Shown here in pieces: positions 636 to 43,472 of a stretch of 64,000 nucleotides of DNA. The stretch is from the NCBI GenBank assembly GCA_963777505.1, contig CAVZQN010000004.1, positions 832,001 through 896,000 of the forward strand, in the 5' to 3' direction. A model generated the notes under the pieces. It was not told where the DNA came from and did not search any database. It saw only the letters and a list, made by a program, of their open reading frames with translations. The DNA comes from an uncultured bacterium. Its GTDB lineage: Bacteria > Acidobacteriota > HRBIN11 > JAKEFK01. The translations under genes and the position numbers were made by a program. Numbering within the stretch: the stretch's first letter is position 1; the number at the start of each line of letters is the position of its first letter.

Positions 636-1101
636 TTGAAGATATCAATACGTCGCAATACAGCGGTCTGTCCCTACTGCAAGCAGTCAGTGACTACTAA
701 GGGTGAACTCGGTTTTTGTTCTGTATGTCACACAGTGCATCATTCCGAATGTTGGCGGCAACTCAATGCATGCAGCGTGTACGGGTGTGCCGGATCCCTT
801 GCACAACTGGATGTTAAGGGGCAACGCATTCCGTTCCGACAACATTTGCTTTCATTATTTCCGCTTCTTTCCGTAATTCTTTTCATTTACGGTGGCACTT
901 ATCTTTTTAGTCGTCTCTTTCCCATGAATTATCTCGGCACATTCATTGTGTATGTTATTCTCACAATGGCGACCTTAATTTTCGTCGCATGGAGAATGAA
1001 TCGAGAGTATGCATGCCCTGCATGCGGCATGGGACTACGTCAAAAAATTGCAGGGCTCTATCTCTGCACTTTGCGGCGTGCGGTTCCAGGGCCGCCTTTG
1101 A
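636..1101 (+). CDS. Prokaryotic RING-finger membrane protein (RING, 2 TM, C-terminal Cys cluster); probable 1-nt indel near 1040-1075
   Basis: CPYC...CSVCHTVHHSECW...CSVYGC, two hydrophobic helices, then CPAC. Deleting one base gives ...CGVRFQGRL-TGA(1099-1101), just before the sulfatase start. Confidence 0.55.
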
Positions 1102-1127
1102 CAAATGGAATGATGATGCAAAACCCA

Positions 1128-5036: not shown

Positions 5037-5103
5037 GCAGGCTAAAATCATTCTATTTTTGGATACGCATCTGTGAAATCTTCGTAAAGGACACGGAGGA
5101 TTC

Positions 5104-19626: not shown

Positions 19627-21894
19627 CTATTCATCAATATACCCCAGAGCTTTGAGGTTTTCGCGGGTAGTTTCGTCCATGGTAGCGTGTTCGGCTTTTT
19701 GCCATGCTCCTATTTTTTTGCTTGCTGAAAGCCATCCGAAAACTCTGCTTCGTAAATACGCGGCTTGAACAGGATCTTTGTCAATCCTGTTATCTTTTTC
19801 GAGCGGATCAGCCTTCAGGTTGTAGAGCTCTTCGTTTCTGGATTGAATGTGTACCATGTATTTAAGATCATTTTCAATATAGCCATACGCTTGTGACGCA
19901 ATAGTCTGAGTCATGACTGGCCTTGTTGGAAAGTCTGATGATGAAAGATATGGAATGATACTGTTCCCATCGACATTCCAATTTCGACGCGAAAATTGCA
20001 TAAGATCTACAAGTGTTGGATAGATATCAACCGTCCGTACCGGCTGACTAATCCTTTTCCCTTTCAGCGGAGTTTGATCAGCGAATTTAATGACAAGTGG
20101 AATATGAATACTTTCTTCATAAAGTTGCGAATTATGGCCTTGAAAATTGTGTTCCCAGAATGCTTCACCATGATCTGCGGTAACAACGATCACAGTATTT
20201 TTATAAACGTTCAGTTGTTTTAATTTTTCGATGACACGGCCAACTTCATAGTCCCCATATAAAAGGTTTTCATCATATGTCGCGATGATGTAATCGCGAT
20301 CCGCTTTTGTTGCATCCACTTCTCCCATATTGATTTTCCGCCGCATTTCGTAAGAAGCGTCTCGATATCCTTTATAGGATGGATCTGTAAAGCGGTTCTT
20401 GAATTTCTCCGGAGGGTTAAATGGAGCATGAGGTTCTCGATAGTGTAAGTACGCAAAAAATGGACGATTCTTATCTGAGCGCTCAAGCCATTGAACAAAT
20501 CTGTTTGTGATATCTGAGCCCCATCCCGTATAATTTGGCTCCCGAAAAACTTCACGAACTTCCTTAAATCCTTGCGTCATTCCAAATGTATTTGAAGCAT
20601 TTCCATTTGCAACGAATGTTCCGGTATCGTATCCGCCCGATTGAAATCGCTCTGCAAGCGTAACAGTTGCGGAAGGAAGTTTGCTTTTCCGTAAAATGAT
20701 TTGATGGTTATAAGGATCGAGCCCTGACATTAAACTTGCAGTAGATGCCAGTGTATAAACTGCCTGGCAGTATGCTCGCTCAAACACGATACCTTCACGC
20801 GCTAACGCGTCAAAATTTGGTGCGGTCTTTCGATTGTATCCATAAGTCTGATAATGCTTCGCGCCTGCCGCATCCTGAACGATAACGATAACATTTGCGC
20901 CACGGTTGGCTTTGCGGATCCCTTCCACAATTTCCTGGTTAACATCAGGAGAATCAAGGGCATCCTGAAAAAGCACAGGCTCAATCCACGCAGCTTTTCC
21001 CGAATCAAAAACAGAATTTCTTTTTAACCCGAGCTCAATTTCATAAATAGCCGGTTCACTGGACGTAATGTGTTTTGATAGTGCAACATCTTCAAATGAT
21101 AGAATTTCTTTGTCTGTTCGTTTCTGGAAAATTCTTTTTTCAGATTGTCCATCCCTTCGTAATGTAACAGCGAATTCGGCAAAATCATCATCATCGGAAA
21201 TTGCAGCTGGATCAAAAAAGACTCCGAATTTAAGTCTGGAATTTTTATTGAGTTTTTCGTAATAACGAATTGTTCCACCGGCGGGTAAAACGAGTGCCGC
21301 GCGCCTTTTTCCATCAAAATTCAAGGACTGCGCTTCTGGCTCCGGATGTTTTTCGCCAATGTGTGGTGGTCCTGACAAATATTGTGCCGGAGTAATGACT
21401 GCATAGTAAGCTGAAGCTGCAAGAGTTCGTTGATCATTTTCGTGGGTTCTTAATTCATTCCACTTGAACTCGATAACATTTGTCTCAGGTAGCAGAGCTT
21501 TCGCAGGCAATTGAAGTGAATGAATATCAGCTTCGCCATTAACTTGAATTCTTCCTGCATCCTGTTTATTCAACAGAACGCTGACGGAATTCGGGAAAAA
21601 GGATCCTAACTTGATATGCAGATAAAGTGGAGTGATGCGGGGAGTCTTAAAGAAAAAGGATGTTTTTTCGGCAGAAGCCCATTGGAAAGTTTCATTTCCA
21701 TCCTTTTCTGGTTGCGACCATCCTGAGAGCAAAAACTTTTTATCTTCACTTCTACCAAAGATGATGACCTGGGATTGATCGTTTTTCTCAGCGTATGGAA
21801 GTCGTTTGATAAGATCAATTGGAATTTGCGAAGTTGTGTGCGATCGGCATCCTGAAAGGATCAGGCAGAGAAGTAGTGCGATTTTCAAATGCAT
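19627..21894 (-). CDS. Sulfatase-like (alkaline phosphatase superfamily) lipoprotein
   Basis: LSGC lipobox; NVIVIVQD; YTLASTASLMSG; EPH.P; ADHGE; LKALGY C-terminus. Confidence 0.8.
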   Translation of the reverse strand: MHLKIALLLCLILSGCRSHTTSQIPIDLIKRLPYAEKNDQSQVIIFGRSEDKKFLLSGWSQPEKDGNETFQWASAEKTSFFFKTPRITPLYLHIKLGSFFPNSVSVLLNKQDAGRIQVNGEADIHSLQLPAKALLPETNVIEFKWNELRTHENDQRTLAASAYYAVITPAQYLSGPPHIGEKHPEPEAQSLNFDGKRRAALVLPAGGTIRYYEKLNKNSRLKFGVFFDPAAISDDDDFAEFAVTLRRDGQSEKRIFQKRTDKEILSFEDVALSKHITSSEPAIYEIELGLKRNSVFDSGKAAWIEPVLFQDALDSPDVNQEIVEGIRKANRGANVIVIVQDAAGAKHYQTYGYNRKTAPNFDALAREGIVFERAYCQAVYTLASTASLMSGLDPYNHQIILRKSKLPSATVTLAERFQSGGYDTGTFVANGNASNTFGMTQGFKEVREVFREPNYTGWGSDITNRFVQWLERSDKNRPFFAYLHYREPHAPFNPPEKFKNRFTDPSYKGYRDASYEMRRKINMGEVDATKADRDYIIATYDENLLYGDYEVGRVIEKLKQLNVYKNTVIVVTADHGEAFWEHNFQGHNSQLYEESIHIPLVIKFADQTPLKGKRISQPVRTVDIYPTLVDLMQFSRRNWNVDGNSIIPYLSSSDFPTRPVMTQTIASQAYGYIENDLKYMVHIQSRNEELYNLKADPLEKDNRIDKDPVQAAYLRSRVFGWLSASKKIGAWQKAEHATMDETTRENLKALGYIDE

Positions 21895-21929
21895 GAATGA
21901 GCTCAACCGCCAAGACAAGACGCCAAGAA

Positions 21930-28554: not shown

Positions 28555-30351
28555 TCAGGTTTGGCTCCAGCTGCGCGGGAAATAGCCAAGATTTTGTGCG
28601 AGTGAAGAAGGTACACAAAAATACGTCATTGAAATCGGCGGATTATATCCACCATGTTTTGGGAATGGGTAGATTGTTCGAGTGTGGACCGAATACTTAG
28701 AAAGCACCGCAAAACCGCCGAGAGCTGCACAGATTTTCCAGCTATGTCTTCCATAGTGATCAGTGCCAAATACAGGACGCAATCCTTGTCCGGATAATTC
28801 ATGTACATATCGAAAACCGGCATGGTACGTGTTCCACCCTGTATGCATAAGATCATAATCATTCAGCGCGGATTCTTCAGTGAAGATGACGACGATTCCT
28901 GCCGCACAATACTTTCGGAAGACTTCCACAATTTTTTGATTTGTCTGGCTCCGAACTTCATGAAAGCCGTTACCGACAAACATCACTGCGCTTTCTGTTG
29001 AATGTCCGGAAGTTCGAACAGCATCAATCACGATATCTGGATTTGCTATATCCGCTTTTCGGATAAAGATCATATTTTTAGGGAGGATGTTTTTGCGTTG
29101 TAAATCTTCAGCCTTATCGATTGCCGCATCTTCCAGATCCGCGCCAAAGTACTGAATATTTTGTTCACCGCTGCGATCAAGCCGCTGTCGTGTTGCTTCT
29201 CCCTGACCTAATGCGTGTTCAATAAACACGGAACATTGCAAATTGTGATCTTTGCAGAAACGATCATATGTATCATTTGCCATTTCAAAAGTTTTGCGAT
29301 TTGCATCCTGGCTTGCTGCAATATTTTTTCCGCGCTGAACCCATGTCTTTGTTGCTTTACCGGAGAGTCGATCCGCCAGCACTTGCATATACGGTACATA
29401 GGCATGAATAATTCCGAAAGGTCCTGGTCCGCGCTGAATTACTCGCGCTCCAAGCGCCGTTAGCTTTCCTTTCGATTGAATGATTCCAGCATTGACCAAC
29501 AATGTTTTCATTTCTGGAGTTATCTTTGGAAGCGCTTGAAAGACATTCGAGCCTTCATCCATTCCCTTCAGCGCCTTCGTTGCATGCAAACTTAAAATCA
29601 AAGGCACGAGCCGGTAACTTGTTTCTAATTCAAATCGAGAGGCAACCCATCCCGTAGTTTTGCCTTGCGGAACAGAGTATTTAAGAAAAGAGGAAACAAG
29701 GTCCAGCGTTTCGGAAGTGATCTTTCCGCCGGACAATATTTCCAGCATGGGTTCAACCATGTCGCGTAAAAATTCTGGAGGAATTGGAATCGTGTTTCGA
29801 AAAACATCATGAGCCTGAGGAATGTCTGCGATGTGATAGGTCTTCCGCTTTGCAATCAAATAGCCGCGGCAATGAAAAAGTGAAAGATCCCAGCTAAGCT
29901 GGTTTTGATCCAACATCATTTTGTTTGAAAGTTTTTCTGGATCAATCCGTTTTTCATCTGCGATTACTTTTGTAAGACCGAATTGACTGTGGGCAGAAAG
30001 TACATGTTTCAAGATCCAGAGATCAGACGGTGCACACACCGCGGCGCTATAAACAATCGTGCGTAACACACGCACTGCACTGAGAAAGGAATCCTGTTCA
30101 CTTTTGGAGAAGCCTTTTGCTTGCTCCATTTTCTTTTCAGCATTTTTGAGCCAGGTCAGCAGCGCATTGCCATGTGTAAATAAATGAGGGACATGTTGCA
30201 GAAATAATTTGAAAGATCGTTCTGAAATGTAAGGAAAACCTGTGCTGCTTAAGCTTGTGCGTCCGGTAAGAATCCGAACCAGGTAACTTCTGCGCGGATG
30301 GGGCAAATCAACCAAAAGCTTGCCGGCTCGTCGTAAAATAGGGCTACTCAT
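28555..30351 (-). CDS. Putative class I SAM methyltransferase with helical N-terminal domains (AprA-related-like)
   Basis: Degenerate motif I FIEHALGQG, GADLE..AI, ADIANPD, FHEV, YVHELSGQ; resemblance judged by eye. Confidence 0.55.
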   Translation of the reverse strand: MSSPILRRAGKLLVDLPHPRRSYLVRILTGRTSLSSTGFPYISERSFKLFLQHVPHLFTHGNALLTWLKNAEKKMEQAKGFSKSEQDSFLSAVRVLRTIVYSAAVCAPSDLWILKHVLSAHSQFGLTKVIADEKRIDPEKLSNKMMLDQNQLSWDLSLFHCRGYLIAKRKTYHIADIPQAHDVFRNTIPIPPEFLRDMVEPMLEILSGGKITSETLDLVSSFLKYSVPQGKTTGWVASRFELETSYRLVPLILSLHATKALKGMDEGSNVFQALPKITPEMKTLLVNAGIIQSKGKLTALGARVIQRGPGPFGIIHAYVPYMQVLADRLSGKATKTWVQRGKNIAASQDANRKTFEMANDTYDRFCKDHNLQCSVFIEHALGQGEATRQRLDRSGEQNIQYFGADLEDAAIDKAEDLQRKNILPKNMIFIRKADIANPDIVIDAVRTSGHSTESAVMFVGNGFHEVRSQTNQKIVEVFRKYCAAGIVVIFTEESALNDYDLMHTGWNTYHAGFRYVHELSGQGLRPVFGTDHYGRHSWKICAALGGFAVLSKYSVHTRTIYPFPKHGGYNPPISMTYFCVPSSLAQNLGYFPRSWSQT

Positions 30352-31504: not shown

Positions 31505-31603
31505 TTTGATGCAGCTCTCCTTTTTTGAATTTTATGTAATCTTATTGTATCTCTTTCAAAGACGCAAAGGCGGGATGCGGGATGCGCGGTGCGCGATTAG
31601 CTC

Positions 31604-31653
31604 AACCGCCAGACGCCGAGACGCCAGGTTAAGAATTTGTGTCTTTGCGGTTC
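31604..31653. repeat. Complete (empty) 9-mer ACCGC/AGACGC inverted-repeat element
   Basis: AACCGCCAGACGCCGAGACGCCAGG ... TTTGTGTCTTTGCGGTT. Confidence 0.65.
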
Positions 31654-31655
31654 AG

Positions 31656-32102
31656 TTATTGCTTTTCTAAATCCAGTGTCTCTACCGGCAAATCCCAATG
31701 CGCCAAAAGTATCTCAAAGCGTCGCTGTTCTTCTTTCTTGAATGTTTCTTGATCAGGGTAAAGCGGCTTGGTGATTGTTTCCGGATCAAAATCATCATGT
31801 GCAATCGTGGAATTTTTCCAAACAATTGTTACACGATAATCCCAGCGTCCATCTTCCGTAAAATGATAAACAGGTGTCGATGCCGTTACCTGCAAAATGC
31901 GCCCCATCTCAATTTCTTTCTTTAAAACGGGGTAGTGATTTTTCTTAAACAAACGGATGAATTCGTTCTGAAATCCCCAACGTGCTTTGTAATAATACTC
32001 AACCGTGTATGGTTTCTCCTGAGCGTATGCTGGAAAATATGGTGCAAGAGTTATTAAAATCAAAACACAAAAACGCACAAGTATTTTTTGATGCACTCTC
32101 AT
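31656..32102 (-). CDS. Secreted hypothetical protein
   Basis: Signal peptide ending AYA; conserved-looking YYKARWG...LFKKNH...AHWD; AGGAG RBS. Confidence 0.7.
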   Translation of the reverse strand: MRVHQKILVRFCVLILITLAPYFPAYAQEKPYTVEYYYKARWGFQNEFIRLFKKNHYPVLKKEIEMGRILQVTASTPVYHFTEDGRWDYRVTIVWKNSTIAHDDFDPETITKPLYPDQETFKKEEQRRFEILLAHWDLPVETLDLEKQ

Positions 32103-32156
32103 TTCTCCTTCGTATGTCGGGAAATACTTAGCTCAACCGCCAAGACGCTAGTTGAT

Positions 32157-32361
32157 CTATTTCTTTGAGCGTTTCGATTTCTTTTTGGAACGAGATTTTA
32201 ACTTCCGTTTTTTCTTGGTTTTTGGTTTTAGGTTTGACACGTTCCGGAAGTTCCTTATATCCTGTTTCGCGATTCCACTCTTCGTAAGTCTCTGGAGAAA
32301 TTTCTCCTTTCACCAGAAGTTCGGCAAATTTTCTGCGTTGAGCTTTACTTTTGAATGGCAT
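32157..32361 (-). CDS. Small basic protein (MPFKSKAQRR...) with a Lys-rich tail after correcting a 1-nt indel
   Basis: Removing one base near 32220 gives TKTKKKRKLKSRSKKKSKRSKK-stop at 32157-32159. Confidence 0.6.
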
Positions 32362-32364
32362 AAC

Positions 32365-32742
32365 TTATCCCGGTAATAACTCAGTTGTAGTATTCCTCGA
32401 CTTCTTGCGGCCAAGATCAACAGCATACTTCAACCAACCTGGTGTGTGATATTTTTCCAGATATGCCTGATCGATTTTATCGTTCAATGCTTCACTTTTT
32501 GTTTGACGCGCACGTACGGCGATTTCTTTATCATCGACCAGAATTGCCCCTTGTGGGTCTTCAAGAAATGTACGATACCAACTTCGTCGTTTAATACTCC
32601 ATGATCGTACGAAGACGCGGTCAGCAACAACCACAGCCCAGATCCGGATGAATTTGTGATCGCCAGTACCTGCTCGGATTTTGATCGCAATATTTTTCCG
32701 TATGGATGCTAATACCGTGCGATTGAATTGGCGCTTTTTCAT
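32365..32742 (-). CDS. DUF2255 family protein
   Basis: IWAVVV..RVFVRS....SWYR...ID.AY..KY pattern. Confidence 0.75.
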   Translation of the reverse strand: MKKRQFNRTVLASIRKNIAIKIRAGTGDHKFIRIWAVVVADRVFVRSWSIKRRSWYRTFLEDPQGAILVDDKEIAVRARQTKSEALNDKIDQAYLEKYHTPGWLKYAVDLGRKKSRNTTTELLPG

Positions 32743-32780
32743 GAAGACGATTTACACAGCAAGAATGACTCATTCGTTGG

Positions 32781-33926
32781 TTATTGTTGTCCCAGCCAGG
32801 CTTGATTTCCTGACGCATCCTCTATTTCATTCAATATCCGTTGAATAGCCGCATCAGATATCTGGTGTTTCCTATGGGTTGCATCTATGAATATATCAAA
32901 TTTTCCCGAACCAAATTTATTGATCCGCTCTTTAACGATGTCTTTATATCGATCCGATTTTGTGCCTGAAAAACAACATGGATCATATTGATTAAATATT
33001 TGTAAATGCTTTCTGCGGTCTCCGTAGGAGTCAAGGATATAAAGATCAAGGTAGTTCACCGTTTGATAAACTTTTGGCTCATTCTGCTCATAATCACCCC
33101 ATTCTCCAGACTCAGGTAGACGAAGATGAATAGGATAGGATCCTGCAACGCTAAAACTGTTTTGGATCCTTTCATCGAGAGCGGATACAAACGTAGTCGT
33201 CCATCCACCTCCTGATATTCCAACCATGGACACAGATGAGTAGTTATAGTTTTTGGATAGATAATTTAGAACAATCAAAACCGGCTCAATGAAGAATTTG
33301 ATTGGATGTCCGTGTTGGGGTTTTAAGAACTTGATGTGATCGTGACGTTCCAATCTAAAGTTCCCGATTGTGGGTAGTACAATAGTCGGCTGATTGTTAC
33401 GTCCCATCAAAGGCATTGAAAAAGCTACAACTGAGTATCCTGCATCAAGGAATTTTCCAATTTGCTTTTTACCCATAAGAAAATCGCCATTATGTCCTTC
33501 ATGGTAAAGAATGACTCTATTGTTTGGAGATTTTGGGATGAAATGATAGCAGTAAGATTCCAGACCGAATTCCATTCTGGCAGTTACTTTGTCGATGCTA
33601 CTTTTTGCGGAGAGATCATCAAAACGGTCATCCACAAAATTTTTCTTAACATCCGAAGGAAGGGTTGATGGAAGTCCAGATTCTCCCCACAAGAGAGTTA
33701 TCAATTCTGTTCTTAGCCGTCCAATATCTTGCTGTTCTTTGATAGAGATGAGGCTGGCGGTATCGTTCTCCAAAAATTCTTCGGGCGGAGGCGGTGAGAT
33801 TTTATTATAGAGTTCTGATAAGAATTCGTAAGGTGGCAGCTTATCTTTATGGATTAGCACCCCCAACATTATTGCCATAAAAAAAAGTATTGTTAAGCAG
33901 GCGAATTTTAGTATTCTCATCCGCAT
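32781..33926 (-). CDS. Membrane-anchored alpha/beta-hydrolase-fold protein
   Basis: N-terminal TM; YH.GH; GISGGG nucleophile elbow; DPCCF; late His. Confidence 0.68.
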   Translation of the reverse strand: MRMRILKFACLTILFFMAIMLGVLIHKDKLPPYEFLSELYNKISPPPPEEFLENDTASLISIKEQQDIGRLRTELITLLWGESGLPSTLPSDVKKNFVDDRFDDLSAKSSIDKVTARMEFGLESYCYHFIPKSPNNRVILYHEGHNGDFLMGKKQIGKFLDAGYSVVAFSMPLMGRNNQPTIVLPTIGNFRLERHDHIKFLKPQHGHPIKFFIEPVLIVLNYLSKNYNYSSVSMVGISGGGWTTTFVSALDERIQNSFSVAGSYPIHLRLPESGEWGDYEQNEPKVYQTVNYLDLYILDSYGDRRKHLQIFNQYDPCCFSGTKSDRYKDIVKERINKFGSGKFDIFIDATHRKHQISDAAIQRILNEIEDASGNQAWLGQQ

Positions 33927-34016
33927 TTTTTGGGTGCTTTATGAGCGGAACATGAATCGATCCTGGAATAAGGATATAGAAAAACGTCTTTCTTGGAATA
34001 TAGAATCAGAAGATTG

Positions 34017-34304
34017 TTATTCAAGTCGAGCGATTCTGCCATCAAATTTTGTTTTTATCCGGGGAGCATTGGGCGCTTGCTCATCCAGTGACTGGCGATA
34101 CTTTATACAACCTTCAAAAAATTGCGGCCATTCGGGCACTTCCGGAATAGGATCACTCTTCTCGGGCAATAAGCCCCAGAGTTCTGGATGATGCCAGCAG
34201 AGCTCATGCCGGCTGGTGTCCCGATGTTTACGGATTCCAGCTCGAAGTCTCTTCATTTCGTCAATGAGTTGTTCTCGCGACATTGTATCAAGATCGTCAT
34301 CCAT
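34017..34304 (-). CDS. Hypothetical protein
   Basis: AGGAGG RBS; conserved-looking LCWHHP.LWGLLPE...GCI.YR.SLD. Confidence 0.7.
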   Translation of the reverse strand: MDDDLDTMSREQLIDEMKRLRAGIRKHRDTSRHELCWHHPELWGLLPEKSDPIPEVPEWPQFFEGCIKYRQSLDEQAPNAPRIKTKFDGRIARLE

Positions 34305-34412
34305 GATGTTCCTCCTGAAGCCAGTGAATTCACGTTATATAATGAACTCGGCTCCTAGTTAAGCGTCTATTGATAATCTGATCCCATTATTTCTTTCCTG
34401 CAAGTGAGTACC

Positions 34413-37029
34413 ATGACTCCAGAACGTTGGAAACAAATTGAACAAATCTTTTCCACTGCGGCAGAATTGCCTCAACACGAAAGAGAAAATTTCCTGAAAA
34501 CGACTTGCGCGAATGATTCCGAGTTGCGTTTTGAGGTTGAATCGCTCCTTGCGCAAGATACCGAAACTGGAACGATGATGCAGACCTTGATTTCAAAGGC
34601 TGCAGGGTCTCTTCGCAGTTCAGATCTTACAGGAAAAAGGATCGGTCCCTATCGAATCATATCTCTTACCGGTGAAGGTGGGATGGCGCAAGTTTATAAA
34701 GCTGTCAGGGATGACGATCAATATCAAAAGGTTGTCGCTATAAAAATTTTGCGACAAGACTCGGCGCCATTATTTCTTATTAGCCGATTCTGGTACGAAC
34801 GTCAAATTCTTGCGAACCTCGAACATCCTTGCATCGCTCGTTTCCTTGAAGGGGGGACAACAGAGGAAGGCATTCCGTACTTTGCTATGGAATTCATCGA
34901 AGGACAGCCAATTACAGAATATTGTGATTCGCATAACCTTACAATTCGAAAACGTCTTGAATTTGTTCAGATCCGTTTGCGAAGCAGTTCAGTACGCACA
35001 TAAAAATCTTGTCATACATCGAGATCTCAAACCAAGAAACATTTTAGTAACCGATGAAGGGGTTCCTCGATTATTAGATTTTGGCATTGCTAAATTATTG
35101 AACCCTGAAATTGGATCCGAAGTTCCGAGCGCAACAATCAGTTCAGTACGCATGATGACTCCCGATTACGCCAGCCCTGAACAAGTACGCGGGGAGAAAG
35201 TTACAACTGCTACTGATACTTATTCACTAGGTCTTGTACTTTATGAAATGCTTTCAGGAAAGAGACCTCAGGAAGTTCATACGAATTCATTTGCTGAAAT
35301 TGAACACGTTGTTTGCGAGCAGGAACCGGAACTTCCCAGCGCTGCAATACTTCACCAAAAGTCCAAAATAAATACCAAGAAATTAAGCCGTGAAATTTCA
35401 GGAGAGCTGGATAACATCGTTTCAATGGCGATGCAGAAAAATCCACTTCAACGCTATGCCACTGTGGAGCAATTTGCGGAAGATATTTCAAATTATTTAG
35501 AAGGTCGCACGATTCGAGCAAAAACACCCACACTGAGTTATCGCGTCATAAAGTTCGCGAGACGGCACCGAACTGCAGTAGCTGTGACAGCATTTGTAAT
35601 TCTTACACTTGCAGCAATTGCTGTATTAATGACAATGCAAGCGTCACGGATAGCAAAAGAGAGAGATCGCGCAAGTGAAGTCACGAAATTTCTTGTTGAG
35701 CTTTTTCAAGTTTCCGATCCAGGTGAATCGAAAGGGAATTCTGTCACTGCGCGCGAACTTTTAGACAAGAGTGCTAAGAAAATTGAAAGCGACCTTAAGG
35801 AACAGCCCGAGGTTCAGGCTGCATTGATGGAAACAATGGGTAAGGTGTATGGCAACCTTGGACTCTATAACACCGCGATCCCAATGCTGGAAAAAGCACT
35901 TGAGATTCGCAAACAAACTCTTGGTTCTAAAAGCCCGGAAATTGCAGCAACCATGAATAGTCTTGCTGGAGCTCTTCAGAATGCAGGAAAACATGATAGA
36001 GCATTAAAAATCGGAGGAGAGGCGCTCGCATTGCGTCGAAAACTCTTTGGAAATCAACACCCAAGTGTCGCTGAAAGTTTGAGTGTCACTGGCGGCTCCC
36101 TGTTTGAAAAAGGACAGCTCAAAGAAGCGGGCGCTGTGTTTCGAGAGGCATTGGCAATCCGGGAAAAAGCGTTCGGCCCTGAACACTTACTTGTGGCAAC
36201 GAGCTTATCTCAACTTGGTTTGATTCTTTCGGTAGAAGAGAAGAAAGATGAAGCAGAGCCTTTGTATCGGAGAGCACTCACGATCCGCCGAAAACTTCGT
36301 GGTGCCGATCATCACGAAATTGCAACAAGCCTGAATAACCTTGGGAGAATCCTGCTGGATAAAGGTGATTACATTGGTGCTGAAGAAATGTTTCGGGAAG
36401 CTGTGCAGCTGGATAGAAAAATATTAGGAAATGATCATCCGGATCTTGCTGTAACGCTTTCTAGTCTCGCATGGACATTGAAGGAACAAGAAGAATATTC
36501 AGAATCGGAAGAGCTTTTTCGTGAAGCACTCGCTTTGCGAAAACGGGCTCTTGATTCCCAACATCCAGCGATCGCCAGAAGCTTATACAACTTAGGTTGT
36601 ATTCTTACTGACAAAAAGGATTTCGATCAAGCTGAAACCGTATTGAAAGAAGCTCAGGAGCATTGGAAAAAAACGCTTCCTGAAATTCACGCGAACCATG
36701 CAACTTTGTTAGCCGCGATCGGAAAAGTCCAAATGGGAAAACAAAAACTGAATGAAGCTGAAACCTCATTCAAGCAAGCAATCGAAATGCGGATTCGCAC
36801 ATTGAGCGCCGATCATCCGAGTATCGCAATCGCGAAAGGGACTCTTGGAGAGTGCATGGGCTTGCAGGGCCGTTATAAAGAAGCCGAAGTCTTGCTCCTT
36901 GAATCCTACAATGCTTTGCTTGCCAAGTATCCAAAAAGTCATCCGGAGGCAAAGGAAGCACAATTACGCCTCATTTCGTTTTATACATCCTGGGGAAAAC
37001 CAACCGAAGCCGCCCGATACAAACAGTAA
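34413..37029 (+). CDS. Membrane Ser/Thr protein kinase with C-terminal TPRs (1-nt indel at ~34963)
   Basis: GEGGMA.V, VAIK, HRDLKP.N, DFG, TPDYASPEQ; TM; 42-aa TPRs. Two ORFs join as RLE-LFRSVCEAV. Confidence 0.9.
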
Positions 37030-37057
37030 TCTCTGCGCCTCTGTGGTTGAGTTTAAA

Positions 37058-38944
37058 CTATCCAAGTTCGATCGGGCGTTTATGGAACACGATGCGCCAA
37101 TCCAGAATTTCATCGATCATTTTTTCCGAAATGTCATCCACGATCTGCGCAAGCGATGCAGAATCAACCGTTGATTTATTTCGAAACGTCTCCAGGTCAA
37201 CGTATTTTTCGTCAAGATATTCAGCCATCGCAACATTGTGACGTCCCACCCTTTGAAATTCTCCCTGACTGAGAATTCCTGCAAAGGCAGCACCAAAAGC
37301 AGGACAGACAATGGATAGAAGAGAAAAGGCAGTGCCTAGTTGAGGGAAATCATTCAAATAAGGCCGTATAGAAGTATTGGAGTATACAAATGGAAGGTCT
37401 TTCAATACATGCAATCCACATCCTATTGCAGCCAGGATGAACATTCCGAATGCTAAAAGATGAAGGCGATGATGGATATTTCCATTCCATGTTGCTTTTC
37501 GAAAATGATAGGCTGCTTGATGTTTTGTTTCCTGTTGAATCAAGCCTGCAACTGCCTTGAGATAATCCTGAGTGAGTTTGGTGTTTGGTAAACCAATATG
37601 TTTCGCCACACCGGAAAAATGCCAGTGAACCCAGCTTGAAGAGGGATCTTCATAGTGAGTGTGGATTGGCTCAGGTGCAGCCAATGGAGGAATCCGCCCG
37701 ATTGCTGCGAGAAAACGTGTTTGACGGAGCAACTCGGCGAGCAAACGGTAATCGATCCGTCTGTCATACCATTTGCGTGAACGATCAAAAAGATAAACAA
37801 CGATGATCGAAGCAATTGCAAATAATTCCGCAAATCCAAGCGCATGTTTATGCAGCACAAACGCAAGAAAAGCAAACAGCACAGCCAAAGCGCTCATCAA
37901 GTAGTTCCAAATAAATCCACTGTGATAGAGATTTGTATAATAACCAGCAAGAGCATCTGCAAATTCATAGTGCGGTCTGACTTTTTGTTGTATGTTTTCA
38001 ATAACCTTCGTAAGCTCTTCTCTGGCCGCAGGCGAAATGTTTTCTATGGATTGAATGGATGCGGTCCAATCTTTGGGTTGATCCTTAATTTTCTTCAGGC
38101 TCCTGTCGTAGCCGAAAACCTTATTAAATAATTTCCATAAGACTGCAAAATTCCAACTCGGAATTTTCTCAGAAAAATACATGCTCCGAAGATCAACGAC
38201 TTTTGTTGCATGATGTGCAATCTCATGTGGATCTTCTTCTTTGGGTGGAAGTATTCTTAACGCAACGGCGGCATGAAAATCCGTTTCATCCACATCTTTA
38301 AATATCTTTTCTTTTTCTATCGGATCATTCTTATCTTTCTGTCGTTCATTTTTCGATTTCGGACGGCGATAAACGACGTCATGCGGCTTATCGGGGTTGA
38401 CTTGTACGATAGGAATCGAAAACTTTTCTGCTTCTTTTACGATGTGCCCTGTACCGCCGGCACCACGCGGCTCCTGTCCATTCCAGATTGCAACTAAAAC
38501 GTCGGAATGTCTGAGTACCATTAAACCCGCAGCTTCATATGCTTGTTCTTCTTTTTCAGTAGAACCATCCATTTCAAAAATCACTGGCTCTTCGTCGCCA
38601 GGTTTATTTACGTTTTCACCGTAAATTTTTTCAGCATCCGTTGGGCTTCCAGGTTTAAAAAAAGGGAGAGGGCAGTAAAGCTTATATCCGGACTTTTGTG
38701 CTATCGAGGCTACAATTTGATCTGCTCCGTCAGCAAGTGGGGAAAGGATCTGTAAGCCATGCTCAAGACCATCTTGTTGTTTTGGAAGTGATTGAATAAC
38801 GCCTTTTAGTTTTGTGAAAATTTCATTCAGCTTTTGGTCGATCTGATCACGATCCATCTTTTGCAAGTCTTTCATTCGATGGCCGGTAACTCCGACTCGT
38901 AAGATGAATCCGTGAGACTCAGGTGATGTTCCCTTTGCTGGCAT
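37058..38944 (-). CDS. SLOG (YspA/DUF1273-like) domain fused to two SLATT/DUF4231-like 2TM modules
   Basis: RVGVTGHR, LSPLADGAD, CPLPF, YEAAG, DVLVAIWNG...GGT; TM pairs followed by IDYRLLAELLR and EF.R; C-terminal E..DW. Confidence 0.78.
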   Translation of the reverse strand: MPAKGTSPESHGFILRVGVTGHRMKDLQKMDRDQIDQKLNEIFTKLKGVIQSLPKQQDGLEHGLQILSPLADGADQIVASIAQKSGYKLYCPLPFFKPGSPTDAEKIYGENVNKPGDEEPVIFEMDGSTEKEEQAYEAAGLMVLRHSDVLVAIWNGQEPRGAGGTGHIVKEAEKFSIPIVQVNPDKPHDVVYRRPKSKNERQKDKNDPIEKEKIFKDVDETDFHAAVALRILPPKEEDPHEIAHHATKVVDLRSMYFSEKIPSWNFAVLWKLFNKVFGYDRSLKKIKDQPKDWTASIQSIENISPAAREELTKVIENIQQKVRPHYEFADALAGYYTNLYHSGFIWNYLMSALAVLFAFLAFVLHKHALGFAELFAIASIIVVYLFDRSRKWYDRRIDYRLLAELLRQTRFLAAIGRIPPLAAPEPIHTHYEDPSSSWVHWHFSGVAKHIGLPNTKLTQDYLKAVAGLIQQETKHQAAYHFRKATWNGNIHHRLHLLAFGMFILAAIGCGLHVLKDLPFVYSNTSIRPYLNDFPQLGTAFSLLSIVCPAFGAAFAGILSQGEFQRVGRHNVAMAEYLDEKYVDLETFRNKSTVDSASLAQIVDDISEKMIDEILDWRIVFHKRPIELG

Positions 38945-38966: not shown

Positions 38967-40427
38967 TTATTTTTTTAGATCATCAGCAAAGATTGCGACG
39001 CGAAAGCCTGTGTCACTGAATCTGCGTGTAAATTCTTTCCGGGTTCGTGAAGAACTACGACAAAATGCTGCGGCACTTGAATAGGAACCGCCGCGAACAA
39101 CACGATATTGCGGATCGCCATGTGTTTCCCATACCGAAGCTCCTGATGGTGATCCTTTGTAGTTTGGATGCCATGGATCCATGCACCATTCTTGCACATT
39201 TCCATGCATATCAAGAAGGCCGAAACCATTAGCTGCATCCGTGCTTCCTGAATCAAATGTTTGTTGTCTTCGTACTCCCGAAAGAGTACGACCCCACGGA
39301 GAAGTGGCATCAAAATTCGCAATGGTGGGAGAAATTGTTTCGCCGAAATGGAATGGTGTGAGGGTTCCTGCGCGGCAAGCAAATTCCCATTCTCCTTCAC
39401 TTGGCAATCGATAAGGCCTGCCAGTACGAGCTGAAAGGCGATCGCAAAATTCGATCGCTTCTTCCCATGTTATTTGTTCAACAGGACGATCTTTTCCACG
39501 GAAAAATGAAGGCTCAGAATTGAGTTCGATCTTCACTTGCGGCCAATCAGCAACCTCAGCCCATTGGGCTTGTGTAATCTCGAGACGCGAAAGAAAAAAC
39601 GAAACAACTTGAACCTGTCCTTGCGGAGTTTCGGCTTGTGCAACTTCTTTAGCTTGCAGAAGCGGTAAACCAACACGCTGTAACTCTTTTACAACCTGAC
39701 TAAACTCTGTTTCCGAAGAACCCATCCAGAAATTCCCACTTGGAAGTTCAATCATTTCCAATGATTCATTGCTTCCTAAGTCTTCCCGAAATAATCTTCC
39801 TTCGCGCTGCATTCCTCCTTTCATTACACCGGAACTATCAATCGTCGCTACTGTGAATTGAAATGTTTCAAAGCGGGCAGACGGAACGATCGCACGATAG
39901 ATTAGAAAGGCAACAACGAATGTGAAAATTGTTAACAAAAGTGCGGCAGGCAAAATCCATTTTGTAGCGGATCGAATTTGCGCAATTGTTTGATTTCCAG
40001 GAATGACCCGCTGAGGCTCTATTCTTTGGCCGGTAAGAAGTGAGTGCACATTTTCAGCAAGACGCAAAAGATGTCTGTGCAACGGTGGAGTCAGCGCGTC
40101 CAACCAGTGCGGAACACTGATGAAATACTCCAGAGATTTTGACATTGGCACATCTTCGATGCGAAAGGGGATGATTGCGAGGCCTTTGTGAACGGCTCGC
40201 TCAACTTCACGCTTCACTTCGTACGAAGAATTCGCATGATTCGAAAAAACAAGAATGAAGATTCGTGCTTGATTGATTGCTTCAATGATCGCTTCACCAC
40301 GATCGATTCCAGGCAAAATGTCACGCGGTGCAATCCAACAGCGGATACCATTTGCTTCCAGCGTTGCACAGGCTGCATCACCGACTGGCTTGTCAGGCGC
40401 GGCGTATGAAATGAAAACGTCATGCAT
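38967..40427 (-). CDS. TIR - TM - FGE-sulfatase (C-type lectin fold) domain protein
   Basis: DVFISY, CWIAPRDI.PG, S..V.REVERA; TM WILPAALLLTIFTFVVAFLIY; F.MGS, RLPSEGEWE, GNV.EW, RGGS, GFRV. Confidence 0.88.
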   Translation of the reverse strand: MHDVFISYAAPDKPVGDAACATLEANGIRCWIAPRDILPGIDRGEAIIEAINQARIFILVFSNHANSSYEVKREVERAVHKGLAIIPFRIEDVPMSKSLEYFISVPHWLDALTPPLHRHLLRLAENVHSLLTGQRIEPQRVIPGNQTIAQIRSATKWILPAALLLTIFTFVVAFLIYRAIVPSARFETFQFTVATIDSSGVMKGGMQREGRLFREDLGSNESLEMIELPSGNFWMGSSETEFSQVVKELQRVGLPLLQAKEVAQAETPQGQVQVVSFFLSRLEITQAQWAEVADWPQVKIELNSEPSFFRGKDRPVEQITWEEAIEFCDRLSARTGRPYRLPSEGEWEFACRAGTLTPFHFGETISPTIANFDATSPWGRTLSGVRRQQTFDSGSTDAANGFGLLDMHGNVQEWCMDPWHPNYKGSPSGASVWETHGDPQYRVVRGGSYSSAAAFCRSSSRTRKEFTRRFSDTGFRVAIFADDLKK

Positions 40428-40440
40428 AATTAGATTGAAC

Positions 40441-40546
40441 GGAGCGCAGGCTTCCAGCCTGCATTACGGGCCGCGGACTTCCAGTCCGCCAATTCCGCAG
40501 GCAAGATGCCTGCGGCCCATAATGCGGGCAAAGATGCCCGCGCTCC
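40441..40546. repeat. Nested REP doublets (GGAGCGC.../GGGCCGC... family)
   Basis: GGAGCGCAGGCTTCCAGCCTGC [GGGCCGCGGACTTCCAGTCCGC...GCAGGCAAGATGCCTGCGGCCC] GCGGGCAAAGATGCCCGCGCTCC. Confidence 0.78.
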
Positions 40547-40554
40547 GTATAAGC

Positions 40555-41943
40555 TCAGAAAATTTTCTTGAATTTGTCTTTTAACTTTCGGAAAAGATTT
40601 TTGCTTTCTTTTTCTGCTAACTGTTTCAACTTTTTCTCTGTCCAGGATTTCATACCAGGATCCAATTTTCCGCAGCGATCAAAATCATTTTTTGCTAATG
40701 GCAAATTTCCCTGGGACAGATAAATTGCTCCGCGATTACAATATGGCTCGGCAAAATTGGGTTCGAGCTTGATCGCCAATGTATAGTCCGTAACCGCTTG
40801 TGTAATATTTTTTAACTCCTGGTTTGACACCCCGCGAGAATTTGCCGCTTTCGCATGCTTCGGGTTTAATCGCAGCGCTTGCGTGAAATCGGAAACAGCA
40901 TCTCTATGTTTATCCAGGCTCTGATTGGTTAAGCCACGCTGATAAAATACCTCCGCCTGATTTGGATCGTATCGCAGTGCCTCGTTTAAGTCTTTTAATG
41001 CGAGCGCTTCGTTCCCTTGCTTCTTATATACCTGTGCGCGATCGCTGTAGGCTGCTGCAAAATCCGGTTTCAATCCAATTGCTTTACTAAAATCCACAAT
41101 GGCTTGATCGTAATTGCCTGAAATGCTGTAAGCCTGACCGCGATGATGATACGCTTCGGCATTTTGAGGATCCAACTGCAGTACTTTGTTGTAATCGATG
41201 ATCGCATTGGGATAGCGATCGAGTTTGTAATACGCTTGACCGCGGTAATGATAAGCATCTTCGAAATTCGGATCCTGTTGAATTGCTTTGTCAAATGATT
41301 CAATCGCTTTATCGTATTTTCCTTCCTCAAATTCTCTGACGCCTTGCGAGTAATATGGATTCTCTTGAGGTTTCGGGCGTTCAACAACTCCTTTGCTTCG
41401 CAGCAGATTCATCACATAAGGCAAACCTTTGATCAAACCGAATGTAGCAGTGAAGGCAATGAAGAGCGTGAGTATGACACTAGCAGCAATTGCTTTGCCG
41501 CTAAATTTCTTGCTTCCGAAAAGTTTTGGTTGTGATGTGCCGCGATTCAAGAGTTGCGATACTGTGTCTCCTAACAACTCAAGATGGCTTTCCTGGGGTC
41601 CCGAATATGCATCGAGATATTGCAAAGAGCCGATGTAATATTCGAGAGCCTTATCCGCAACTACATTTTGAACGCGATAAGGAAGGACCGTTACGCCTTT
41701 GTTGATTGCACGTTCTACTTCACGATGAATTTGACGCGATGCATTCGCGTGTGTAGACATTACGAGAACCATCACCGATGCTTCATTGATGGCTTCGATA
41801 ATTGCAGCGCTCCAATCTGCGCCAGGTGTGATATTGCGAGGAGCTATCCAGCAATTGATCCCGCGAGCTTCCAGAGTGACACAGATTGCGTCTGCAGCCG
41901 CGCGATCGACAGACGAATAGCTTATAAATACTTCGTGAGCCAT
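40555..41943 (-). CDS. TIR - TM - TPR protein
   Basis: EVFISYS, CWIAPRNI.PG.DW, S..I.REVERA; TM AIAASVILTLFIAFTATFGLI; about seven 34-aa TPRs. Confidence 0.88.
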   Translation of the reverse strand: MAHEVFISYSSVDRAAADAICVTLEARGINCWIAPRNITPGADWSAAIIEAINEASVMVLVMSTHANASRQIHREVERAINKGVTVLPYRVQNVVADKALEYYIGSLQYLDAYSGPQESHLELLGDTVSQLLNRGTSQPKLFGSKKFSGKAIAASVILTLFIAFTATFGLIKGLPYVMNLLRSKGVVERPKPQENPYYSQGVREFEEGKYDKAIESFDKAIQQDPNFEDAYHYRGQAYYKLDRYPNAIIDYNKVLQLDPQNAEAYHHRGQAYSISGNYDQAIVDFSKAIGLKPDFAAAYSDRAQVYKKQGNEALALKDLNEALRYDPNQAEVFYQRGLTNQSLDKHRDAVSDFTQALRLNPKHAKAANSRGVSNQELKNITQAVTDYTLAIKLEPNFAEPYCNRGAIYLSQGNLPLAKNDFDRCGKLDPGMKSWTEKKLKQLAEKESKNLFRKLKDKFKKIF

Positions 41944-42005: not shown

Positions 42006-43400
42006 TCATTTAATCTTGCGCGGTTCGGTTAGATTCGCAGGATCGAACAGCGTGGCGAATTCTTCATCGCTAAGAAGTTTGCGTTCCTTCACAATTTCTT
42101 TGATTGATTTCCCCGTTTGTTGTGATTCTTTGACAACTTCTGCAGCTTTCAGATACCCAATAAAAGGGTTGAGTACTGTTGCTAGACCCAATGTTCGGTC
42201 TGCATACCGATTGCAGGCTTCAGCGTTAGCCGTAATCCCTGTAACGCATTTTTCGGTAAATGCGCAAATACCGTTTGTAAGAATCGTCATCGATTCAAAC
42301 AGATTATGTGCAATAACAGGCATCATCACATTCAATTCAAGCTGTCCTGCTTGTGCAGCCATCATTATCGTTGTGTCATTTCCAATCACATGAAATGAAA
42401 TCATGTTCAACATTTCAGCCATTACAGGATTTACTTTGCCTGGCATAATCGATGATCCTGGCTGCACTGCCGGTAACGTAATTTCATCTAACCCAGTATT
42501 CGGTCCTGATGCGAGCAATCGAAAATCATTTGCGATTCGCGTCAGCTCGATTGCAAGGTTGCGGAGCGACGCCGATAATTCTGTAAATGAAGACATGCTT
42601 TGCATTGCTTCAAACATGTTTTCGGCAGGACGCAAGTTGAAGCCTGTGAGTCCACTCAAGTAGGAAACAATTACGCCACGATAATCCGGATGCGTATTTA
42701 CGCCGGTTCCTACTGCGCTTCCTCCGATGCCAAGTTCTTCCAATGAAAGCTCCGAATGAATAATCTGAAAACGCATTTTTTGGATGGCGCGCGCATAGCC
42801 GCTAAATTCCTGTCCTAATCGTATCGGTACCGCATCTTGCAAATGAGTTCGGCCTGATTTCAAGACTGGATCAAATTCTTGTGCTTTTTCGCCAAGTGCA
42901 TTCTCAAGCTTTTCAAGCTGATTGAATAGACCCGGCAGAAGCGCTAACGCTGCTAAACGCATGGAGGTTGGAATGACATCATTCGTAGATTGCCCCATAT
43001 TTACATGATCGTTCGGACTGATGAGTTGATGATCACCTTTCTTTCCACCTAAAACTTCAGCCGCGCGATTTGCGATCACTTCATTGACATTCATGTGAAA
43101 CGATGTGCCGGCGCCGGCTTGAAAAACATCAACGACAAAGTTGTCGTTGTATTCCCCAGCCGCAACCTGCGTAGCAACATCTATGATTGCTTTTGCTTTA
43201 TGCTCATCAAGATAACCAAGCTGCATATTTGTTTTTGCAGCAGCTACCTTAATTAGAGCCGCTGCACGGATCAGCTCTGGATGTGCTTTTTGCCGGCTGA
43301 TTGGAAAATTGCGGACGGCACGCGCAGTCTGCACGCCATAATATGCCTCCTCCGGAACTTCCATCGTGCCTAGTGAATCCTTTTCTACCCTCGTTCCCAT
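42006..43400 (-). CDS. aspA: Aspartate ammonia-lyase / class II fumarase
   Basis: YYGVQT.RA, GAGTS..MN.NEV, GRTHLQDA, GSSIMPGKVNP, GQLELNV; GGAGGAG RBS. fumC is not excluded. Confidence 0.8.
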   Translation of the reverse strand: MGTRVEKDSLGTMEVPEEAYYGVQTARAVRNFPISRQKAHPELIRAAALIKVAAAKTNMQLGYLDEHKAKAIIDVATQVAAGEYNDNFVVDVFQAGAGTSFHMNVNEVIANRAAEVLGGKKGDHQLISPNDHVNMGQSTNDVIPTSMRLAALALLPGLFNQLEKLENALGEKAQEFDPVLKSGRTHLQDAVPIRLGQEFSGYARAIQKMRFQIIHSELSLEELGIGGSAVGTGVNTHPDYRGVIVSYLSGLTGFNLRPAENMFEAMQSMSSFTELSASLRNLAIELTRIANDFRLLASGPNTGLDEITLPAVQPGSSIMPGKVNPVMAEMLNMISFHVIGNDTTIMMAAQAGQLELNVMMPVIAHNLFESMTILTNGICAFTEKCVTGITANAEACNRYADRTLGLATVLNPFIGYLKAAEVVKESQQTGKSIKEIVKERKLLSDEEFATLFDPANLTEPRKIK

Positions 43401-43472
43401 GACTCCTCCATACGGTATGTGTGAAACATACAACATGTATTATAAAATCCATTAACCACAAAGGCGCAAAGT

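Follow-up and report, generated by a model that had tools for sequence, protein, structure and literature searches.

A 64,000-nt stretch of contig CAVZQN010000004.1 (positions 832,001 to 896,000 of the forward strand; hereafter the window), from an uncultured bacterium of the Acidobacteriota, encodes two neighboring minus-strand proteins, P0002 and P0001. Each starts with a TIR domain followed by one hydrophobic segment and then by tetratricopeptide repeats (TPRs; P0002) or an FGE-sulfatase domain (P0001). A preliminary description, made from the sequence, had presented them as a pair of receptors. The open reading frame (ORF) coordinates and the strand that it gave are correct and both proteins are built as it said, but it overlooked the adjacent gene P0004, which encodes a predicted SLOG domain fused to a SLATT-type membrane module. 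P0004 is the strongest clue to function and turns two receptors into a three-gene signaling system. On balance, the locus is probably a chromosomally fixed TIR/SLOG-SLATT signaling system that works on Thoeris logic, in which the C-terminal domains of P0001 and P0002 plausibly gate the TIRs from the periplasm.

The TIR assignments are firm, with Pfam TIR_2 matching residues 4-100 of P0001 at 71.0 bits and residues 5-116 of P0002 at 80.7 bits (Pfam cut-off 28), and the repeats of P0002 were found as seven TPR_1 stretches (Pfam, E 5.8e-52). The two TIR domains are closely similar, as had been reported: their N-terminal regions share 68 of 138 residues (49%, E 1e-44), and both contain the motifs VFISY, CWIAPR(D/N)I.PG, REVERA, and LEY(F/Y). 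The Glu of REVERA, which had been put forward as the catalytic residue, is E74 in P0001 and E75 in P0002 and was invariant in 14 of 14 TIRs aligned from the window and related loci. In a profile search of PDB sequences, where the clade profile matched 86 solved TIR chains, this Glu aligned with the W-x-x-x-E Glu of PdTIR (3h16), TIR-STING (6wt6), and Cat1 (9mud), a position that we take to be that of the catalytic Glu of TIR NADases. By these sequence features both TIRs look catalytically competent. Against the NCBIfam model of the Thoeris type III protein ThcB4, P0002 scored 22 bits (cut-off 220). The term paralogous, applied earlier to the pair, calls for a qualification. In a tree of 61 rows the two were placed in different subclades, that of P0001 linked to FGE (support 99/93) and that of P0002 to TPR (100/100), so they did not arise by a recent tandem duplication. 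Close relatives of P0002 (74-88% identity) had an unchanged architecture. Over the whole tree the C-terminal domain labels require 4 changes for FGE, 5 for TPR, and 3 for DUF4189, which points to repeated swapping of the C-terminal domains on this TIR clade.

The order on the minus strand is a lyase gene (aspA), P0002, P0001, and P0004, with gaps of 62, 127, and 22 nt, such that P0004 starts 22 nt past the stop of P0001. The N-terminal 200 residues of P0004 matched no Pfam family, YpsA included. Several other lines of evidence bear on its identity. An AlphaFold2 model made from a 41-sequence alignment had a mean predicted local distance difference test score of 89.3 and a predicted template modeling (TM) score of 0.89. 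Its compact Foldseek matches at probability 1.00 were all SLOG proteins, namely YpsA (2nx2, target TM-score 0.61), TM1055 (1rcu), DprA (4ljk), and a Moco carrier (6y01), and the SLOG domain of ThsA with 3'cADPR (7uxs; cADPR, cyclic ADP-ribose) was matched at probability 0.97 and TM-score 0.43; the E-values of these whole-model searches, with all 628 residues as the query, were weak (0.02-0.3). By tblastn, the plasmid and phage collections gave 9 records each, in most of which the N-terminal domain alone was matched; Rhizobium plasmids yielded a 'DUF1273 domain-containing protein' (E 2e-8), and nine Microbacterium phages yielded 'DprA-like' proteins (E about 1e-6). BLASTP aligned P0004 with the Rhizobium DUF1273 protein at 29% identity across all 159 residues of the latter (E 3e-18), and the motifs VGxTGH, LAxGADQ, SDVxxAxW, and GGT are common to both. 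Pfam YpsA was matched by 4 of 36 P0004 relatives, one of them above the cut-off (P0483, 28.3 vs 27.7 bits), and the ESM Atlas gave a sub-threshold YpsA lead (0.82). PDB sequence searches with P0004 and with a profile of its N-terminal domain returned nothing significant. Because tblastn, BLASTP, the Pfam matches of relatives, and the AlphaFold2 and Foldseek results agree, the N-terminal domain of P0004 is assigned as a predicted YpsA-like SLOG domain. Among its conserved residues are G18, G21, G73, D75, and G163-T165. A search with this domain alone yielded 3836 representative clusters at E 1e-3 or better.

The C-terminal half of P0004 contains four long hydrophobic helices according to both hydropathy and the model. 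Of its aligned relatives, 31 of 41 match DUF4231 (Pfam) and 5 of 41 match SLATT_1; relatives carry source names such as 'DUF4231 domain-containing' and 'SMODS and SLOG-associating 2TM effector domain', and RefSeq calls one that is 27% identical to P0004 a 'DUF4231 domain-containing protein'. Hydropathy and a Lys/Arg-rich stretch past the second helix would place both termini in the cytoplasm, which fits a cytoplasmic sensor domain. The linker that joins the two halves (residues 201-320) contains part of the low-confidence segments of the model and is 18-28% identical among relatives, compared to 59-77% for the SLATT core. The low identity of P0004 to its close relatives stems mainly from this linker, and we rejected fast evolution of the protein as a sign of an arms race. 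In published work, the YpsA clade has been predicted to be linked to NAD or ADP-ribose and SLATT to be a pore regulated by ADP-ribose derivatives (PMC9503650).

The partnership with TIR genes recurs well beyond the window. The alignment of the P0004 family was used to search contigs in a collection where each species is represented by a single genome, and 550 of 599 matched stretches encoded a relative. Linkage was counted in the best 80 loci, with genes taken from our own greedy ORF sets and TIRs recognized by an iterated TIR profile; the counts are lower bounds, as many contigs end near the gene and locus L017 was left out. These 80 loci come from Acidobacteriota, Thermodesulfobacteriota, Pseudomonadota, Verrucomicrobiota, Planctomycetota, Latescibacterota, Myxococcota, Nitrospirota, Gemmatimonadota, Elusimicrobiota, and Bacillota. 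A TIR gene was adjacent to the effector gene in 23 loci; the number rose to 35 when a distance of up to two genes was allowed and to at least 39 for up to three. Per gene, TIRs made up 46 of 403 at ranks 1-3 vs 7 of 490 at rank 4 or beyond (odds ratio 8.9, Fisher p 1.8e-10). Pfam confirmed TIR_2 in 42 of 42 first-round profile matches (among 56 proteins scanned), and in a later recheck 11 of 12 scored above the gathering score, the twelfth being a 30-residue fragment. The 23 adjacent TIR genes were co-directional in 14 cases (gaps of -14 to 174 nt), convergent in 7, and divergent in 2, and the TIR-linked state is scattered across the effector tree (22 changes vs a shuffled mean of 26.6). The linkage is thus statistically strong and phylogenetically broad. 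Homologs of P0001 (75-87%) and of P0004 (46-57%) also lie on contigs of the same sizes (26302, 20205, 3588, and 74235) and are probably linked there. Independent annotation of a Caballeronia plasmid lists a DUF4231 protein, then a TIR protein, then a WD40 protein. Rhizobium binae plasmid p4 (NZ_CP071608.1, positions 3620-5989, locus L082) carries an operon of a ThsB-type TIR, a caspase, a standalone YpsA-like SLOG protein (DUF1273), and a TIR_2 protein. It resembles a Thoeris-like system in which a caspase is the effector and SLOG is on a protein of its own. This operon adjoins IS110 and IS30 transposases.

Among the 46 TIR proteins encoded within three genes of an effector, 21 (in 19 loci) start with the TIR, have a single hydrophobic segment, and continue for 60 residues or more. 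The others have several segments (5), a segment in another arrangement (10), or no segment (10). Their second domains include DUF4189 (6 loci), TPR, FGE, PD40/WD40, CHASE2 (2 loci), and SPOR, and also the cytoplasmic types SIR2, AAA_35/STAND, NB-ARC, PNP, and cyclase.

Two further arrangements were seen in the survey. In six loci of the Dadabacteria/Thermodesulfobacteriota type (L002, L004, L005, L006, L028, and L031; L003 is cut at a contig end) the arrangement is inverted, with two full-length SLOG-SLATT paralogs in tandem (about 617 and 594 aa) and, 54 nt further downstream, a single gene for a TIR-segment-DUF4189 protein. In the Acidobacteriaceae loci L035, L036, L038, L040, L045, L056, L060, and L062 (also L012, L013, L014, and L039) the gene just downstream of the effector encodes a TrkA_N (NAD-binding) protein of about 680 aa. 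Proteins with an RyR domain, small or fused, recur as neighbors too, with TIR genes further on in L056 and L062, and the TrkA_N and RyR proteins may form a second class of partners of the effector family.

As in Thoeris generally, TIR genes are here in operon-like arrangement with an effector that bears a predicted nucleotide-sensing domain, to judge from the 22-nt gap, the predicted SLOG fold of P0004, and the linkage in at least 39 of 80 loci. TIR plus a SLATT effector (ThsH) defines Thoeris type VII, with canonical cADPR as the signal, the SLOG domain of ThsA binds 3'cADPR, and Thoeris type III combines several TIRs with a SLOG effector (bioRxiv 10.64898/2025.12.03.692087). Among known types the locus is closest to type VII, the likeness of P0004 to ThsH being one of SLATT annotation and of the published description of ThsH. 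In both, a TIR gene adjoins a membrane effector with SLATT annotation, which for P0004 itself is a sub-threshold match, and the expected logic is that an ADP-ribose-derived signal made by the TIR leads to a membrane-breaching oligomer. Unlike in type VII, two different TIR genes are present here, in each of which a hydrophobic segment and a large C-terminal domain (TPR or FGE) are encoded, and P0004 adds an N-terminal YpsA-like SLOG domain and has four, not two, hydrophobic helices. With types I and III the locus shares a SLOG domain as the presumed receptor of the TIR product, and several TIR genes per effector also occur there. In contrast to ThsA of type I, which is a SIR2-SLOG protein, P0004 has no SIR2 domain and its output is a membrane module; its nearest SLOG fold is that of YpsA (2nx2), not ThsA, by the TM-scores given above. 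TIR plus SLATT is therefore already known, and what appears to be new, judging from the sequences, is the combination of bitopic sensor-type TIRs with a SLOG-SLATT fusion.

We next consider where the C-terminal domains of P0001 and P0002 reside. As noted in the preliminary description, neither protein has a signal peptide, in that the first TIR strand begins at residue 4 and the highest 19-residue hydropathy in the first 40 residues is 0.72 / 0.97, and each has one hydrophobic segment after the TIR domain (Kyte-Doolittle maximum 2.72 for P0001 and 2.18 for P0002) with Lys/Arg ahead of it. A query consisting of the TIR domain and segment of P0002 retrieved 1829 candidates, of which 783 proteins reached E 1e-3 or better, and the best 120 of these were used for clade statistics. 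At least one hydrophobic 19-mer was present in 107, and exactly one in 71, with a median start at residue 176; the position of the segment is kept across relatives, its sequence is not. Of the 71 single-segment relatives, 48 had more Lys+Arg on the TIR side than on the other, 7 had less, and 16 showed no difference. A catalog of C-terminal domains on this clade, which had been suggested earlier, gave TPR families (14), Sel1 (12), DUF4189 (2), and single proteins with AAA_35, a protein kinase, a xylanase-annotated domain, and others, with about 81 of the 120 having no second domain annotated by Pfam. The C-terminal domains of the clade together with those of the TIR partners in related loci include CHASE2, SPOR, PD40, Sel1, DUF4189, and the xylanase-annotated domain, which are usually extracytoplasmic. 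The most reasonable reading is that P0001 and P0002 are bitopic inner-membrane proteins with an N-in/C-out layout, because the TIR domain lacks a signal peptide and needs cytoplasmic NAD+, because Lys+Arg is mostly richer on the TIR side of single-segment relatives, and because the C-terminal domains of the clade include types usually found outside the cytoplasm.

This plan was previously likened to that of Toll-like receptors. The comparison would hold for the single membrane pass, the cytoplasmic TIR, and the repeat or binding domain outside the cytoplasm, as in animal Toll-like and IL-1 receptors, and heteromeric pairs are a possibility in both. The bacterial proteins are nevertheless a mirror image, with the TIR at the N-terminus, no signal peptide, and no leucine-rich repeat (LRR) or Ig domain (no LRR family was present in the Pfam output for P0001 and P0002). 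They also keep the NADase Glu and are linked to a nucleotide-sensing effector rather than to adaptor TIRs. The locus is not a Toll-like receptor, and homology is limited to the TIR domain.

The FGE-sulfatase match of P0001 is strong (Pfam, E 3.7e-43). The domain had been described as lacking the FGE catalytic Cys pair; the first Cys is indeed replaced, by Ser451, but the second, Cys456, is retained. True FGEs read GGS(F/Y)LCH(E/D)SYC, whereas P0001 reads RGGSYSSAAAFC. In 32 relatives Cys456 is nearly invariant, and the loss of the first Cys holds across the same set. The closest solved relatives are members of the fold that are not FGEs, namely PvdO (E 7.7e-23), TvpA (7.4e-17), and ToxD (1.6e-16), and P0001 scored far under every cut-off of the enzyme-level NCBIfam models PvdO, EgtB, OvoA, SenA, and GldK. 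From its sequence the domain is best read as a non-enzymatic binding module, and 'FGS' domains have been argued to be binding modules by Kaur et al., 2020 (PMC7159879). In the proteins compared it is always C-terminal, behind varied N-terminal signaling or effector heads; other heads seen on relatives are Pkinase (9 proteins, of which 6 have a hydrophobic segment) and caspase (8 proteins, of which 4 have one). The bitopic receptor kinases and caspase-FGE proteins of the same study likewise carry a C-terminal FGE/'FGS' domain on varied heads, whereas the head here is a TIR.

Two other roles for this domain were rejected. The window contains two sulfatase genes, at 636-2531 (+), with an N-terminal prokaryotic RING-finger match, and at 19627-21918 (-), and P0001 might have been their true FGE, but its catalytic (copper-binding) Cys pair is incomplete. 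Maturation of these sulfatases needs a gene outside the window, because no FGE-family domain was seen in it other than that of P0001, in which the first catalytic Cys is missing. A target of a diversity-generating retroelement (DGR) was likewise dismissed for the window. TvpA-type DGR variable proteins (PDB 2y3c) are the second-best solved relative of the FGE domain and also keep the second Cys and lack the first; unlike in those systems, no template/variable repeat pair was present in 36-44 kb, where no repeat exceeded 37 nt, and no reverse transcriptase was found among the scanned ORFs of the window.

The module occupies what appears from the gene order to be a conserved site in the core chromosome, because the same three genes lie between aspA and recA in locus L001, the sole close relative compared at the DNA level. 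The order in L001 is aspA, a 183-aa ORF, TIR-TPR, TIR-FGE, SLOG-SLATT, and recA, and the TIR-FGE and SLOG-SLATT genes overlap by 4 nt. Identity between the window and L001 was 94% for recA, 80% for aspA, 75% for P0001, 74% for P0002, and 46% for P0004. The TIR proteins have thus diverged at a rate similar to that of aspA, ADH, ROK, and a 598-aa ORF (70-80%).

Taken together, these data suggest the following scheme. P0002 and P0001 would each combine a cytoplasmic TIR with a periplasmic TPR or non-catalytic FGE/lectin-like binding domain, and P0004 would be the effector, with its YpsA-like SLOG part sensing a nucleotide in the cytoplasm and its four-helix SLATT part in the membrane. The ectodomains would respond to a ligand or to a disturbance of the envelope, and the TIRs would come together into an active state, by analogy to assembly-activated TIR NADases. 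The TIRs would then convert NAD+ to an ADP-ribose-derived signal, for instance a cADPR isomer, and the fold and gene context of P0004 suggest that its SLOG domain may bind this signal. As in published SLATT effectors, the SLATT module might then oligomerize or open, and the loss of membrane integrity would lead to growth arrest or abortive infection. A more specific version, which we put forward tentatively as possible rather than likely, is an outside-in immune pathway in which a widespread class of bitopic TIRs with swappable ectodomains (TPR, FGE/lectin, DUF4189, Sel1, PD40, CHASE2, and SPOR) read phage adsorption, envelope damage, or foreign surface molecules in the periplasm, an NAD-derived messenger opens a SLOG-gated SLATT pore, and the two ectodomains of this locus are co-receptors.

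A number of findings weigh against the scheme, and the alternatives draw on them. Transmembrane segments were called with a 19-residue Kyte-Doolittle hydropathy threshold, which is crude, is not a trained predictor, and can mislead in large soluble proteins (such as the 'segment' at residue 423 of the NB-ARC protein of L008). The positive charges around the segment of P0002 are balanced (3 vs 3). No hydrophobic segment is present in 14 of 55 TIR-FGE relatives; the N-in/C-out layout proposed earlier does not extend to these, and the FGE domain therefore also works in the cytoplasm. Topology derived from hydropathy and the existence of soluble TIR-FGE variants would also agree with hydrophobic segments that do not span the membrane and with all domains being cytoplasmic. 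We regard this as extremely unlikely in view of the Kyte-Doolittle means of 2.18 and 2.72 across 19 residues, the conserved position of the segment, and the 48:16:7 charge bias. The soluble forms also favor a model with the same three genes in which the ectodomains are envelope anchors, bound to peptidoglycan, lipoproteins, or glycans, and the trigger is a cytoplasmic cue such as a phage protein. SPOR and PF00691 ectodomains occur on these TIRs; we take PF00691 to be the OmpA-like domain, and SPOR and OmpA-like domains bind the cell wall and do not sense ligands. The SLATT effector is itself in the membrane, so co-localization could be the purpose, and known ThsB proteins are triggered by infection inside the cell (bioRxiv 10.64898/2025.12.03.692087). 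Yet the ectodomains on this one TIR clade are very diverse and repeatedly swapped, which suits variable recognition over a constant anchor. Moreover, CHASE2, a dedicated sensor domain, occurs among the partner ectodomains, and we consider the anchor model doubtful.

Other adverse points concern the enzymatic and effector assignments. TIR NADases usually have a Trp four residues ahead of the catalytic Glu, and this Trp is not conserved in the clade of P0001 and P0002. The SLATT_1 (NCBIfam) match of P0004 itself, at residues 321-414, is below threshold (E 3.3e-5, 23.9 bits vs a cut-off of 41). PADLOC recognized P0001 and P0002 as weak matches to TIR models, gave no match for P0004, and returned generic kinase, cyclase, protease, and TPR matches only for 25 neighbors. 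In 41 of the 80 effector loci no TIR was present inside three genes; many of these are on truncated contigs, and several have TrkA_N or RyR neighbors instead. Loci without a nearby TIR would be expected if the TIRs were NAD+-depleting effectors and P0004 an unrelated neighbor or a separate system, and many bacterial TIR fusions are indeed NADase effectors (bioRxiv 10.64898/2025.12.03.692087). We find this very unlikely when set against the enrichment of TIR genes at ranks 1-3, the operon-like gaps between TIR and effector genes, the closeness of the P0004 SLOG fold to the cADPR-binding SLOG of ThsA, and the standalone SLOG domain that sits between TIR genes on the Rhizobium plasmid.

Finally, ORF scans of the window revealed no recognizable defense island around the locus. 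No mobile genes surround the module in these scans, and neither a vWA-MoxR ternary system nor, by the scans and the repeat search of 36-44 kb, a DGR is nearby. Such surroundings, with a stable position between aspA and recA in two genomes and TIR proteins that diverge like their neighbors (74-75% vs 70-80% identity), could indicate that the genes have no anti-phage role and serve an outside-in second-messenger pathway of a housekeeping or social kind, for instance in envelope stress, in the recognition of kin or of contact, or in regulated death or dormancy, with SLOG-SLATT as a gated channel. Ser/Thr kinase and caspase heads on the same FGE domain, and the abundance of relatives in soil phyla rich in signaling proteins, are consistent with this idea. 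The partners of the relatives, on the other hand, are typical of conflict systems (SIR2-TIR, STAND/AAA_35-TIR, PNP-TIR, caspase, patatin, and nSTAND), and experiments have demonstrated phage defense by TIR plus SLATT (bioRxiv 10.64898/2025.12.03.692087). We therefore judge a housekeeping or social role unlikely.

The coordinates of the three genes and their parts are collected in Table 1.

Table 1. The three-gene module and adjoining features, in window coordinates.
Feature	Position (nt)	Strand	Residues (aa)	Description
P0002	40555..41943	-	462	TIR, one hydrophobic segment, seven TPRs, basic C-terminal tail
P0002 TIR	41524-41943		1-140	Glu75 codon 41719-41721
P0002 hydrophobic segment	41428-41496		about 150-172	
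P0002 TPRs	40654-41376		about 190-430	seven repeats
P0001	38967..40427	-	486	TIR, one hydrophobic segment, FGE-sulfatase/C-type-lectin-like domain
P0001 TIR	40008-40427		1-140	Glu74 codon 40206-40208
P0001 hydrophobic segment	39894-39959		about 157-178	
P0001 FGE-sulfatase domain	38994-39758		224-478	Ser451 at first and Cys456 at second catalytic-Cys position
P0004	37058..38944	-	628	SLOG, charged linker, SLATT/DUF4231 membrane module
P0004 YpsA-like SLOG domain (predicted)	38360-38905		about 14-195	
P0004 linker	about 37985-38344 (residues 201-320)		about 200-320	charged, variable
P0004 SLATT/DUF4231 module	37061-37984		321-628	four long hydrophobic helices
P0002/P0001 intergenic spacer	40428..40554	-		127 nt, GC-rich, nested hairpin
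aspA	42006-43436	-		aspartate ammonia-lyase/fumarase-type lyase; first of four successive minus-strand ORFs

The spacer between P0002 and P0001 folds on the mRNA strand into a long nested hairpin (-82.4 kcal/mol, z -9.15, with 0 of 200 shuffles as stable). The equivalent spacer of L001 (8464-8534, 71 nt) gave -47.5 kcal/mol and z -4.86, and a GCGGGC-N6-GCCCGC hairpin is common to both. No Rfam family was matched in the whole window, and the spacer motif has no second copy in it. The hairpin might act as an attenuator between the cistrons or as an element for processing or stability, or it might be a palindrome like the repetitive extragenic palindromic (REP) elements.

The three-gene unit is flanked by aspA, ADH, and recA, and P0004 is convergent with a plus-strand Ser/Thr-kinase-TPR gene. 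Relative to L001, the window has about 5.5 kb extra between P0004 and recA (about 31600-37030), with ORFs of 148 and 77 aa, a DUF2255 protein, a 381-aa ORF without a family match, and this kinase gene (34404-37029, +), which is absent from L001. The kinase gene is split by a frameshift, with the N-lobe (G-loop, VAIK) in 34404-35003 and the remainder in 34810-37029, and is either a pseudogene or the product of an assembly indel. Frameshift errors or decay in the assembly are also suggested by a succinate dehydrogenase/fumarate reductase flavoprotein gene at 60484-62392 (+), which is present as two overlapping ORFs covering FAD_binding_2 profile positions 1-173 and 171-414. The assembly thus has at least two frameshift-split genes; P0001, P0002, and P0004 are all intact. 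The 598-aa (28555-30351, -) and 381-aa (32781-33926, -) ORFs matched no Pfam, NCBIfam, or PADLOC family at the thresholds used, and the former adjoins recA in L001 too (70% identity).

In the literature searched we found no description of bacterial bitopic TIR sensors, although an earlier mention is still possible, and none that joins 'TIR domain' with 'FGE-sulfatase'. The words 'periplasm', 'sensor', and 'membrane-anchored' are absent from the main text of bioRxiv 10.64898/2025.12.03.692087, according to which characterized Thoeris TIRs detect infection from inside the cell, and the accessible portion of a TIR survey (PMC7075850) describes no bitopic TIR receptor. The analysis delimits a large effector family whose N-terminus is not described by Pfam, and its recurrent partnership with TIR genes leads to a concrete ligand hypothesis for YpsA-like SLOG domains. 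Even if the ectodomains are mere anchors, the locus would cleanly exemplify a Thoeris-like system with a fixed place among core genes of the chromosome. A TIR with an extracytoplasmic regulatory domain, if true, would be a new sensing mode for bacterial TIR signaling and a directly testable bacterial analog of animal receptor-type TIR signaling. Should the outside-in pathway also prove correct, it would constitute a functional prokaryotic counterpart of Toll-like receptor signaling and a class of Thoeris systems whose sensing precedes DNA entry or does without it.

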